The notes under the pieces were generated by a model. That model was not told the DNA's origin. It saw only the letters and a program-made list of their open reading frames with translations, and did no database searches. The position numbers were made by a program, and so were the translations under genes. Below, in pieces: positions 24,929 to 27,769 of a stretch of DNA of 56,309 nt. Position 1 is the first letter of the stretch, and each line of letters begins with the position of its first letter. Source of the stretch: an uncultured Gammaproteobacteria bacterium (GTDB lineage: Bacteria > Patescibacteriota > Patescibacteriia > Magasanikbacterales > GWA2-37-8); NCBI GenBank assembly GCA_964496095.1, contig CAZBWU010000006.1, forward strand, positions 1-56,309, written 5' to 3'.

Positions 24929-25000
24929 GGTCGCGTAGCCAAGCAGTAAGGCAGGGGTCTGCAAAACCCCTATGCGTGGGTGCAATTCCCACCGCGACCT
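24929..25000 (+). tRNA. tRNA-Cys(GCA)
   Basis: GGTCGCG acceptor / CGCGACC-U; anticodon arm GGGGT-CTGCAAA-ACCCC; U73 discriminator. Confidence 0.95.
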
Positions 25001-25002
25001 CT

Positions 25003-25080
25003 ATGTCGAGACTCATTATTATCGATGGAAACCCCAGCACTAGAACCGCTGAGGCGGTTCAATGCGGGGCAAGTGCGCTA
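25003..25080 (+). pseudogene. Displaced duplicate of the polA 5' end, interrupted by a 42-bp hairpin element
   Basis: ATGTCGAGACTCATTATTATCGATGGAAA|element|TGCGCTA reads MSRLIIIDGNAL; the live start at 25094 reads MSRLIIIDGNAI. Confidence 0.92.
25032..25073 (-). mobile_element. 42-bp bulged-hairpin element, copy 4
   Basis: CTTG CCCC GCAT T GAACCGC CTCA GCGGTTC T A GTGC T GGGG. Confidence 0.8.
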
Positions 25081-25093
25081 TAAGTATTATTTT

Positions 25094-27769
25094 ATGAGCA
25101 GGTTAATCATCATTGACGGCAATGCGATAATACACAGGGCCTATCATGCCATACCGCCTCTGACTACCAAGGACGGCAAAATGGTAAATGCTGTTTATGG
25201 ATTTACATCCATGCTTCTTAAAGTTTGGAAAGATTTAAAACCCGATCATATTGCGGTGACTTTTGATATGGCTGGGCCAACTTTTCGGCACGTGCAGTTC
25301 AAAGAATATAAAGCTACGCGTGTCAAAGCTGATCAGGCTCTCTATGACCAAATTCCATTGGTGCATGAAGTGGTAGAATCTTTTGATTTACCAATTTATG
25401 AAATGAAAGGCTATGAGGCTGATGATGTGATAGGAACGATAGTTGAAAAAACAAAAGGCAAAGCAGAGGTCTTTGTGGTGACGGGTGATATGGATACATT
25501 ACAGCTAGTGCAAGAAGGAGTTAAAGTTTATACGCTTCGCAAAGGCATAAGCGATATAGTTATCTACGATACTAAAGAGGTAGAAAACAGATTTGGCTTT
25601 GGTCCAGAAAAAATGGTGGACTATAAAGCCTTGCGCGGAGACACCTCAGATAATATTCCAGGCGTGCCTGGTATTGGCGAAAAAACAGCCACGGATTTGA
25701 TAAAGGCCTATGGCAGTATAGAAAATATTTACGACCAACTAAAAGATGAAAAGTCAAAAATTAAATCAGAGATAAAACCAGGTGTACTAAATAAATTAAC
25801 TGAAGGTGAGGCTAGTGCCAGAATGAGTTTTGAGCTGGCTAGTATTAATTGCGCTGTGCCAGATTTGGATTTCAAGTTAGAAAATTGCAAGATAAAAGAA
25901 TTTAATAAATCAAAAATAGAAGAATTGTTTCAAAAGTTTGAATTTGTTTCATTGTTAAAACGTGTGCCCGGGTTTGATGTGTCAGTGATGGAAAAAGAAA
26001 CCCACAAAAAGAAAAATGAAATAAAAATGGTTTTTTCGGAAATTAAAACAGAGGCAGAACTAGTCGGAATGACCAAGTTAATTGAAAAAGAAAAATCATT
26101 TGTTTGTCGACCAGTATTGAGTGGGAAAGAAGTTTTGGAAACAGATTTGTTAGGATTAATATTTGGCGTGCAAGAAAATTTGTTTTTTGTAGAGACAAAA
26201 ATGATTAAAAAAATCTTGCCGATTTTTCAAAATGAAGAGATTCAATTAGTTGGCCATGATTTGAAAGATTTGTTCAAAGCCCTCAAATTTAATTTTGAAG
26301 CAGAGATAAAAAATAATTTGTTTGATGTGATGGTCGCGTCATATCTTCTTAATCCCGGCAGTCGCGCACATGATATTACCAGTCTGTTATTAAAAGTATT
26401 AGGTAAAACCTTGGCGCAAAACACAGCCCAAACTAATTTATTTGGCGTAGATAAGAAAAACTTGGCCGAAGAATTATTCTTGGTTTCTCAGACCAAAGAA
26501 AAACTACAGACTGAGTTAGAACAAGTTGATAATCTGGGACTGTTTAAAACTATAGAAATGGCGCTTATTCCAGTTTTGGCGGAGATGGAAGTAAATGGCG
26601 TGGCTATCGATCTCAAGATGATGGAAAAACTGTCTAAGGAAGCGACCGAGAGTCTAGAAAAAATAACGGCAAAAATATATAAGTTTGCCGGCATGGAATT
26701 TAACATTGCTTCGCCCTTGCAATTACGAGAAGTATTGTTTGATAAGATGGGGCTTTCAGTGGCAGGCATCAAAAAAGGCAAGACTGGTCTGTCTACCTCG
26801 GCTGAAGAATTAGAAAAATTACGAGACCTGCATCCAATCATTCCTGAAATTTCAGAATATCGTGAGCTGGCCAAATTGCAAAATACCTATATAGATGTTT
26901 TGCCTACCCTAGTCAACAAAAAAACGCACCGTATTCATACTCATTATAATCAAACTATTGCCGCCACTGGTCGTCTGTCTAGCATTGATCCAAACCTGCA
27001 AAACATTCCGATTCGCACCGAACTTGGTCGCGCTGTCCGTAAAGCGTTTATTGCCGAGCCGGGCAATGTGCTGGTAAGCGCCGATTATTCTCAGATTGAA
27101 TTGCGTATTGTGGCATCTCTAGCTGAGGATAAAAAAATGATTGAGATTTTTAACAACGACGAAGATATTCATCAGGCGACCGCGGCGGCGATAAACAATG
27201 TTCCGCTCGATAAAGTGACTAAAGAAATGCGCTATGCAGCCAAAGAAGTAAATTTTGGTGTGCTCTACGGGATGGGTTCGTATGGGCTCAGTTGGCGTAC
27301 CGGCATTTCGCAGTTTGAAGCCAAAGATTTTATCAAAAAATATTTTGAAGCGTTTAGTGGGGTGCGTGAATATATTGATCGCACCTTAGAATTTACCAAA
27401 AAAGAAGGTTATTGCGAAACCTTATTTGGTCGTCGTCGTTATTTGCCAGAACTTAATGCCGGTAATTTTCAACTACGTGCCGCGGCGGAGAGAATGGCGG
27501 TTAATCATCCTATCCAAGGCACAGCTGCGGATTTGATGAAGATGGCGATGATAGAAGTACACAAACAACTAACAACTAACAATAAAGAATTAGCAAAAGA
27601 AACAAGAATGATTTTGCAGGTGCATGACGAGTTGGTTTTGGAAGTAAAAGAAAGTTTGGCGGCAGAAGTCGGTGAGTTGGTAAAAAAGACAATGGAAAAT
27701 GTGGTATCCCTGCGCGTGCCGATTAAAGTCGGGTTGAGCTCTAATCGTAGCTGGGGTGAGATGAAATAA
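25094..27769 (+). CDS. polA: DNA polymerase I
   Basis: IIIDGNA..HRAYHA 5'-exonuclease, GDTSDNIPGVPGIG, DYSQIELR, LQVHDELV. Confidence 0.97.
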   Translation: MSRLIIIDGNAIIHRAYHAIPPLTTKDGKMVNAVYGFTSMLLKVWKDLKPDHIAVTFDMAGPTFRHVQFKEYKATRVKADQALYDQIPLVHEVVESFDLPIYEMKGYEADDVIGTIVEKTKGKAEVFVVTGDMDTLQLVQEGVKVYTLRKGISDIVIYDTKEVENRFGFGPEKMVDYKALRGDTSDNIPGVPGIGEKTATDLIKAYGSIENIYDQLKDEKSKIKSEIKPGVLNKLTEGEASARMSFELASINCAVPDLDFKLENCKIKEFNKSKIEELFQKFEFVSLLKRVPGFDVSVMEKETHKKKNEIKMVFSEIKTEAELVGMTKLIEKEKSFVCRPVLSGKEVLETDLLGLIFGVQENLFFVETKMIKKILPIFQNEEIQLVGHDLKDLFKALKFNFEAEIKNNLFDVMVASYLLNPGSRAHDITSLLLKVLGKTLAQNTAQTNLFGVDKKNLAEELFLVSQTKEKLQTELEQVDNLGLFKTIEMALIPVLAEMEVNGVAIDLKMMEKLSKEATESLEKITAKIYKFAGMEFNIASPLQLREVLFDKMGLSVAGIKKGKTGLSTSAEELEKLRDLHPIIPEISEYRELAKLQNTYIDVLPTLVNKKTHRIHTHYNQTIAATGRLSSIDPNLQNIPIRTELGRAVRKAFIAEPGNVLVSADYSQIELRIVASLAEDKKMIEIFNNDEDIHQATAAAINNVPLDKVTKEMRYAAKEVNFGVLYGMGSYGLSWRTGISQFEAKDFIKKYFEAFSGVREYIDRTLEFTKKEGYCETLFGRRRYLPELNAGNFQLRAAAERMAVNHPIQGTAADLMKMAMIEVHKQLTTNNKELAKETRMILQVHDELVLEVKESLAAEVGELVKKTMENVVSLRVPIKVGLSSNRSWGEMK

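Follow-up and report, generated by a model that had tools for sequence, protein, structure and literature searches.

A hairpin between two polA starts, and duplicated gene ends beside related hairpins in Patescibacteria

The DNA polymerase I gene (polA) of an uncultured, ultra-small bacterium of the Patescibacteriota (order Magasanikbacterales; deposited as an uncultured Gammaproteobacteria bacterium) carries two starts, one displaced and one working, with a small hairpin between them. The gene lies in contig CAZBWU010000006.1 of assembly GCA_964496095.1, of which positions 1 to 56,309 of the forward strand were analysed; this stretch of 56,309 nucleotides (nt) is called here the window, and positions below are those of the window unless a contig is named. 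Our results suggest that the hairpin and the substitute start together form a gene-free insertion of a kind that replaces the end of a gene, leaving the native polA start in place, and this is the explanation that we consider probable. In support of this, sequence comparison with relatives established that the dead copy is the native one and the working copy a short import, that the layout is recurrent and strictly polar, and that it turns over between sister species. As judged from its codons, the substitute polA start comes from another genus of the same family and passes without a seam into the resident gene at about codon 17, with the protein unchanged.

The displaced and the working start of polA

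The genome studied (G000) is metagenome-assembled and consists of 14 contigs; it was compared with other genomes (numbered G0xx and G1xx), whose genera are denoted gNN. The tRNA-Cys (GCA) gene at 24929..25001 (+), detected by ARAGORN and by Rfam (62 bits), is followed by the displaced native polA start, codons 1-10 (ATG TCG AGA CTC ATT ATT ATC GAT GGA AA; 25003..25031, +), which we call arm a. Next comes the 42-nt hairpin H2 (CCCCAGCACTAGAACCGCTGAGGCGGTTCAATGCGGGGCAAG; 25032..25073, +), scored at 50.2 bits by the covariance model described below. It is inserted behind the second base of native codon 10 and stays in the frame of the displaced start; it has a CAAG tail at its end and folds as DNA at -13.7 kcal/mol (z = -5). 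The displaced copy continues beyond the hairpin in arm b (T GCG CTA, N-A-L; 25074..25080, +), of which the first 4 nt alone are secure. Since excising the hairpin rejoins GGA AA|T GCG (G-N-A), H2 sits inside a second copy of the polA start and not beside it. A new AT-rich leader of 13 nt (TAAGTATTATTTT; 25081..25093, +) precedes the working start at 25094 (ATG AGC AGG TTA ATC ATC ATT GAC GGC AAT GCG ATA), which opens the reading frame (25094-27769) of a full-length DNA polymerase I of 891 amino acids, as assigned with Pfam. Working codons 1-16 (25094..25141, +) are the imported replacement start, nearer to genera g23 and g35 than to the gene's own genus, and the rest of polA (25142..27769, +) is of the own-genus type. 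The whole polA insert amounts to about 110 nt and is gene-free, and an Rfam search at the site returned the tRNA only and no other family.

A previous reading, made from the sequence alone, had described a dead and a live polA start, and both were found as described (25003-25080 and from 25094 on) with the hairpin between them. Its further descriptions also held: the dead ATG lies directly behind tRNA-Cys (2 nt by the Rfam end of the tRNA, 1 nt by the ARAGORN end), all eight degenerate codons between Met and Asn differ and every change is synonymous, and 13 nt of new sequence precede the live start. As a qualification, the displaced copy goes on for 4-7 nt beyond the hairpin.

The genus member G013, which has no element, shows the empty site. 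Its working polA start lies 2 nt behind tRNA-Cys, in the place of the displaced copy of G000, and the 13-nt leader is missing. The displaced start of G000 thus occupies the same position as the working start in G013 and as the displaced one in G002. The latter genome has the same layout at polA as G000, but with a 33-nt variant of the hairpin, whose outer stem is compensated, and with a different tRNA-Cys allele.

The origin of the working start can be followed in its codons. Within the genus, codons 11-15 read GCG ATA ATA CAY AGR solely in the working copies of G000 and G002, whereas the other members read GCC ATY ATC CAT CGN. The wording found in G000 (GCG ATA ATA CAC AGG) is native in genera g23 and g35. 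When identity was measured in windows, working codons 1-16 of G000 were closer to g23/g35 (mean 0.76) than to the own genus (0.65), and codons 11-16 reached 0.82 identity to g23/g35, with a maximum of 1.00. From codon 17 the order flips (0.78-0.82 to the own genus vs 0.68-0.78). This reversal places the crossover at about codon 16, four codons past the end of the displaced copy, and three hairpin-free members of the genus, used as controls, show no switch at codon 16. The proposal of the sequence-only reading that the live 5' end is the foreign patch, and that aligning relatives' polA would locate the crossover, is supported by the empty site of G013, by the switch at about codon 16 and by the other loci described below.

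One argument that had been offered for foreignness did not survive. The live start is indeed rich in codons ending in C or G, with a G+C content at third codon positions (GC3) of 0.60 over the first 25 codons vs 0.37 for the gene (rank 17 of 868 windows). However, the native polA starts of relatives are just as GC3-rich, so GC3 is no sign of foreign origin. Note that 8 nt separate the displaced copy of G000 from that of G002, and since 7 of these differences are synonymous, both copies seem to have been coding until recently. A metagenome scan for nearer polA relatives gave none above 80% amino-acid identity and none with the element.

Displaced and working ends at other loci

Sharper tests at hppA, uvrA, lepA, comM and the 5S rRNA gene agree with polA and support, at the level of sequence, the view that the displaced copy is the native one. 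Each working terminus is accordingly a short piece (~40-210 nt) of a related lineage's gene, with a different donor at each locus.

At hppA, the H+-pyrophosphatase gene on the minus strand, the displaced native 3' end (last 18 codons, then the native terminator; 21245..21300, -) is 86% identical to the native end of G015. Just beyond the stop of the working gene lies the 40-nt hairpin H1 (21301..21340, +; 49.8 bits), which is oriented as H2 and has a compensating inner stem; arm b (AACCCGA on the gene strand; 21341..21347, -) and the imported end, the last ~24 codons plus stop (21348..21419, -), complete the layout. Over its last 20 codons the working end is 0.70 identical to G015, vs 0.98 and 0.90 just upstream, and the best match of the patch (87%) is in another family. 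At comM, the imported 3' end (last 13 codons plus stop; 9433..9474, +) is followed by arm b (AGCATG; 9475..9480, +), the 40-nt hairpin H3 with a CAGG tail (9481..9520, -; 43.1 bits) and the displaced native 3' end (9521..9558, +). Here 38 of the 39 nt of the last 13 working codons agree with the native end of G012, and the adjoining upstream sequence diverges.

The uvrA gene of G015 has a displaced copy that is contiguous with a genus-typical promoter and 86-90% identical to G000; its working copy has an identity to G000 of 0.71 over the first 16 codons and then of 0.94, 0.92 and 0.88. For lepA, G015 provides the empty site. Its upstream sequence and its MTEN start recur in the displaced copy of G000, and the working copy of G000 begins MNN. 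Finally, the genus has two alleles of 5S rRNA, in which helix I and the processing stems on either side are co-adapted; G006 combines the two. G015 keeps just the 3' end of the type found in its closest relative, and the gene in use is a complete one of the other type, leader and trailer included, ~96% identical to that of G002. In G012, a type-I 3' end is displaced at the 5S locus and lies behind another palindrome (ACCCGCCCGCAACGC...GCGATGGTGGGCGGGT), and the displaced-end layout is thus not confined to one hairpin family.

The flanks of ~75 hairpin copies from 20 genomes were compared in six frames and the matches inspected, and the duplicated-end layout was present in ~20 of them. In the orientation of the hairpin the order is a long displaced arm, the hairpin, an arm b of 4-19 nt, a spacer of 0-40 nt and the complete gene. 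The complete gene was on the CAAG side of the hairpin in every duplicated case, whichever end (5' or 3') or strand of the gene was involved, and this was also true for a tRNA and for 5S rRNA. The claim that the phenomenon follows the orientation of the element and not that of the gene therefore held in about 20 of about 20 duplicated cases. Between the two copies lie 60-110 nt, with no ORF (open reading frame) and no long variant.

The same gene ends recur. The 5' layout of polA was found in G000, G002, G133 and G134, and that of dnaE in G000, G015 and G052; the uvrA 5' layout occurs in G003 and G015, at different codons, and the uvrB 5' and lepA 5' layouts in two genomes each. At the 3' end, hppA is affected in G000 and G037, at the identical site and with an identical 7-nt arm b, and comM in G000 and G003. 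Further targets are gap, yebC, a tRNA and 5S rRNA. Arm b agrees with the working copy at 6 of 6 positions at comM, 6 of 7 at hppA and 4 of 4 at polA. That arm b should match the working copy everywhere was rejected as a rule, since it fails at lepA and uvrA, where arm b is fully recoded.

Because the genome is metagenome-assembled and in 14 contigs, two strain variants of the polA start might have been joined in tandem at a repeat during assembly or binning. We find this hardly credible. The junctions are precise, always hold a member of one structured hairpin family and obey a strict polarity; the layout is repeated at the same genes in independent assemblies, also of other genera (G002, G133 and G134 for polA); and the hairpins at polA, hppA and comM are each a unique sequence and not a collapsed repeat.

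The two copies differ at more synonymous sites than might be expected of orthologues. When 17 hand-aligned pairs of displaced and working ends were pooled, 118 of the 175 degenerate codons that specify the same amino acid differed (67%), vs a baseline of 53% for polA across genera (p = 6e-5). For polA alone, with 8 of 8, the difference from the 53% between the polA orthologues of two genera gives p = 0.006. The excess is thus real but modest; the 8 of 8 at polA is its upper tail, and there is no rule of maximal recoding. Persistence may contribute: pairs with long identical runs would be lost by recombination between direct repeats, and the layouts that survive this deletion would differ beyond ordinary orthologues. 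Whether such a filter or protection from a nuclease produces the excess is a question that can be tested.

An excess of this kind, and the observation that the recoded stretch of uvrA matches the duplicated segment to within 1-2 codons, might also be expected of a local tandem duplication followed by fast synonymous divergence, under selection against recombination between the repeats or for efficient translation beside the hairpin, with no foreign DNA. We consider this very unlikely. The working copy of lepA differs from the displaced one in amino acids and length (MNN vs MTEN), the 5S rRNA gene of G015 is another natural allele, whose leader and trailer match it, the comM patch is another species' native sequence at 38 of 39 nt, and the polA patch has the native wording of other genera. 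Moreover, the split between G000 and G015 (10-15% nucleotide divergence) is too recent for ~30% synonymous change. Duplication in place cannot account for the lepA amino acids, the 5S allele swap and the near-identity at comM, and the donor matches largely refute it.

The hairpin family and the origin of the layout

Exact searches of the window and the genome, or searches allowing 3 mismatches, gave 2 copies of the hairpin only and were too strict; hence a covariance model was built from aligned copies. In the alignment of 14 copies, 97% of the stem cells are paired and 6 of the 13 pairs are changed on both sides, that is, covary. The stem has 13 bp with a bulged A, the ends are constant (CCCC(A)G... 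and ...CGGGGCA(A/G)G), and the 3' tail CA(A/G)G is invariant. Lengths range from 33 to 45 nt, with occasional nested inserts of up to 73 nt in all. Of 100 genomes of the taxonomic family, 33 carry the hairpin according to the model, and copy numbers are 0-30 per genome (9 in G000, 30 in G003 and 12 in G015, with several genus members having none), and pattern scans revealed relatives of the hairpin in three genus or family members and in several classes of Patescibacteria.

Most copies lie within genes or at gene termini and are not extragenic. Five of the nine copies of G000 are at duplicated gene ends (polA 5', dnaE 5', lepA 5', hppA 3' and comM 3'), and the others are inside genes (C1:206302-206343, C1:270618-270659, C2:11860-11894 and window 18429-18466). 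The copy within dnaE (C1:206302) is a 42-nt in-frame insert, and inserts of the same kind are present in tsaB of G003 and at two internal sites of uvrA, where they encode ...PSTR...CGAS-like peptides. The insertions are flush (A|Y), without a flanking target duplication.

Two side observations concern palindromes. The IMG/VR phage contig L254, which is GC-rich and has portal, protease and major head genes, holds a perfect member of the family (8971-9005, 52.8 bits), and phages can thus carry the hairpin; this copy is just downstream of the major head protein gene, with no duplicated gene end beside it. Another abundant repeat, a double hairpin of the GTCATTCC...GGAATGAC type, occupies many intergenic spots with dozens of matches per genome, among them C1:203600-203800 of G000 (upstream of dnaE), sites upstream of polA in L127 and L129, and the 23S-5S spacer of G015 and G006.

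Between the close relatives G000 and G015, the genes that were compared have 84-94% of their nucleotides in common. The dnaE 5' insertion is present in both, yet the inner stem of the hairpin has been wholly replaced, and the two genomes differ in the presence or absence of the layout at lepA, hppA, uvrA and 5S. These differences indicate that the elements are gained and lost on a short time scale.

How could such a layout arise? In the mechanism that we propose, the hairpin would first enter flush near a gene end, and a break 4-20 nt from its CAAG end would then be repaired. The gene-side end would invade homeologous DNA and copy the terminus from it, and the new strand would be joined to the hairpin-side end at a microhomology. 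Two junctions would result, a homologous crossover within the gene and, at 4-20 nt from the CAAG end, a join that is illegitimate or based on microhomology. Insertion followed by patching predicts the polarity, and it also predicts that the patch begins near the end of arm b, as seen at uvrA (1-2 codons), hppA (4) and polA (4).

Alternatively, hairpin and patch may have arrived together, as a self-contained mobile cassette of hairpin, arm b, leader and terminus that homes to orthologous sites by means of a trans-acting enzyme recognising the hairpin. We regard this as possible, though clearly less probable than a replacement of the gene end. In its favour, the same gene ends are struck in different genera, the hppA site and its 7-nt arm b being the same in G000 and G037; in G000 and G002 the polA patch is worded as in g23 genomes, two of which have the polA hairpin themselves; the comM block consists of exactly the patch, a 6-nt repeat and the hairpin, between two adjacent native bases; and arm b of polA (TGCGCTA) is nearer to the donor than to the native sequence. 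In uvrA of G015, however, arm b is native-like and the patch covers the b region too, which implies two junctions 13 nt apart. The positions of the hairpin also vary, at polA from one genus to another (codon 8 vs codon 10) and at uvrA inside the genus (codon 3 vs codon 13), and the searches for Y1/RAYT, TnpB and GIY-YIG proteins described below provided no candidate enzyme. Insertion followed by patching and the unit cassette each fit most of the data, and neither accounts for the 3' patches whose end coincides with the stop codon.

The logic of the layout, a native end displaced on one side and an element-borne end fused on the other, is also that of integrative elements of the integrase type. 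The structure might therefore be what is left of one whose interior was deleted and whose attachment (att) arms remained. This is quite unlikely: all of the ~20 independent loci consist of a hairpin of 35-73 nt and a 0-40 nt spacer and none has a longer interior, no long hairpin-bounded unit was found in the genome and no integrase nearby, and plain in-frame insertions of the same hairpin are present within genes as well. Somewhat less improbable, but still doubtful, is a selfish element without any ORF that homes and rescues. Here the hairpin with the native fragment, as RNA or folded DNA, would guide a trans-acting nuclease, perhaps phage- or plasmid-borne, to cut unmodified alleles of the same essential gene, and the imported, maximally different terminus would escape the cut and rescue the gene. 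This would account for the polarity, for the retention of the native arm, for the synonymous excess and for the same gene ends being affected across genera.

Several points weigh against the replacement of gene ends as we picture it. At polA, the evidence for the patch is 48 nt alone, the assembly of the closest relative, G015, lacks the polA region, and the first 29 nt of the dead and the working copies are about equally far from G013. Arm b resembles the native sequence at uvrA and comM, and that of the donor at polA. The 3' patch ends exactly at the stop codon in 4 of 5 cases, which a random copying and joining does not predict. Nor was an enzyme or a parent element identified. A Y1 transposase or RAYT (REP-associated tyrosine transposase; PF01797) was absent from G000, from G003 with its 30 hairpins and from G015 with its 12, the one partial match being in G014; a search of the hairpin-bearing genomes for TnpB gave none; the counts of small GIY-YIG genes do not follow the number of hairpins; and no long or autonomous hairpin-bounded unit was found in the genome of G000. 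In addition, the translational coupling discussed below is inferred from sequence.

Free-standing GIY-YIG genes (80-130 amino acids) are numerous in the genus, with 7 in G000 and 8 in G011, and one lies ~180 nt from the gap 5' hairpin of G003 (C47:2954-3172). Other candidates were discarded. H1 and H2 are separated by 3.7 kb and do not delimit a composite island, since the body of hppA between them is normally related to G015. CRISPR repeats, integron attC sites, dif/Xer sites, group II intron domain V, diversity-generating retroelements (DGR) and mutation like repeat-induced point mutation (RIP) do not fit the sequence and substitution patterns.

Expression of polA and comparison with known systems

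A promoter scan of 24700-25200 gave one site only, TTGAAA-17-TATTGT with TG (24886..24914, +), upstream of tRNA-Cys, and none between the hairpin and the working ATG. Since this promoter-like site is the sole one, polA is probably co-transcribed with tRNA-Cys, as it must be in G013. In that genome polA begins 2 nt past tRNA-Cys, with no room for a leader, which points to a leaderless or tRNA-processing-dependent mRNA for this essential gene.

The start called dead by the sequence-only reading is displaced, as we have seen, and it probably still serves as the ribosome entry site. An upstream ORF of 26 codons (MSRLIIIDGNPSTRTAEAVQCGASAL*; 25003..25083, +) runs from it through the hairpin to a TAA stop (25081..25083, +), 11 nt ahead of the working ATG. 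Ribosomes would thus enter at the old start, translate this ORF, stop 11 nt before the new ATG and re-initiate there, and the displaced copy would be a coupled upstream ORF and not a dead one. In all 13 cases at 5' ends, no stop interrupts the ORF of the displaced start within the hairpin, the chance of all used frames being open is ~0.02, and 12 of the 13 insertions are behind codon position 2, as counted from the peptides. In 11 of the 13 the stop is found at -13 to +26 nt relative to the working ATG, twice with an ATGA overlap, and in the remaining 2 the frames are fused. The fused cases are uvrA and dnaE of G015 (L076 745-880; L177). Given the decayed working ATG and the 41-nt hairpin of uvrA, UvrA and DnaE of G015 are predicted to have N-terminal extensions of 21-34 amino acids, made of the old start and the hairpin peptide.

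The genes around the insertion are tig, hppA, an M23 peptidase gene and polA. Two non-coding modules were noted here, one at 21041-21126, upstream of tig, which contains TTGCTCAAATATTTTTGAGCGAATGAGTATA, and one at 24780-24856, upstream of the tRNA-Cys promoter. Both are multi-copy in genomes of the genus, on many contigs and with 80-97% identity. The TTGCTCAAAA motif is ahead of polA in most relatives too, and this looks like a portable promoter module. At the end of the window, 49000-56309 is occupied by one or more very large genes of 129-nt (43-amino-acid) tandem repeats with the motif VSGRYAYV.N......SVVDIS, arranged in higher-order units of 1.2-1.7 kb that continue past the contig end.

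Literature searches gave no published description of a layout of hairpin and substitute end, and a recurrent way for a tiny hairpin to sit in essential genes is thus apparently undescribed. If the hairpins with their substitute ends are true mobile units, they would be the smallest known elements that live harmlessly in essential genes, with a spare gene end in place of an enzyme. The patches also record frequent exchange of very short DNA (50-200 nt) between genera of Patescibacteria, and provide precise, datable markers of it. For the genes concerned, the consequences would be upstream ORFs, longer N-termini (for uvrA and dnaE of G015) and peptides inserted in frame into proteins at the core of replication and repair. 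Annotation is affected as well, since displaced ends and double starts are readily mis-called.

Among known short palindromes, repetitive extragenic palindromic (REP) sequences, the REPINs mobilised with RAYT and Rickettsia palindromic elements (RPE) resemble the hairpins described here in being short, imperfect palindromes with a conserved end tetranucleotide and compensatory stem changes, and the in-frame coding palindromes of the RPE type are matched by the copies in dnaE, tsaB and uvrA. REP and REPIN differ in being extragenic, of high copy number and associated with RAYT, whereas the present family has 0-30 copies, mostly in genes or termini, and no RAYT. REP and RPE are not known to bring a replacement for the end of a gene or to face the gene in one fixed direction. 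Palindromes derived from IS200/IS605 need TnpA (Y1) or TnpB, neither of which was found in the hairpin-bearing genomes searched. As in MITEs (miniature transposable elements with inverted repeats), the arms of the hairpin form inverted repeats, but here there is no target-site duplication.

The proposed repair resembles events with less specificity. Short-patch integration likewise leaves short foreign tracts. Homology-facilitated illegitimate recombination during natural transformation (PMC3240628) gives one homologous and one illegitimate junction and short tracts from related species. It differs in involving no specific element, and it leaves unaccounted for the hairpin found 4-20 nt from the illegitimate junction in every case. 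As to expression, translationally coupled upstream ORFs likewise end at or near the main start, as is the case in 11 of the 13 here.

The closest parallels are elements that supply a gene end. Homing-endonuclease ORFs of fungal mitochondria, for example in atp6 of Allomyces, bring along a foreign C-terminus. They are alike in inserting near a gene end, with the foreign end co-transferred and the resident end orphaned, and differ in carrying the gene of a GIY-YIG or LAGLIDADG nuclease, whereas the insert at polA has no such ORF. Surrogate target-gene ends are also carried by e14 and phage 21 in icd (3' end), by SXT/R391 in prfC (5' end, with a new promoter) and by islands in tRNA and tmRNA genes. 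As in the integrative elements e14 and SXT, the native terminus is silent here as a gene end, and a terminus with mainly synonymous differences has been fused to the gene with its function kept. Those elements, however, span kilobases and have an integrase and an identical att core, whereas the insertion at polA is ~110 nt long and gene-free, and belongs to a layout whose one constant part is the hairpin of 35-42 nt and whose donor varies from locus to locus.

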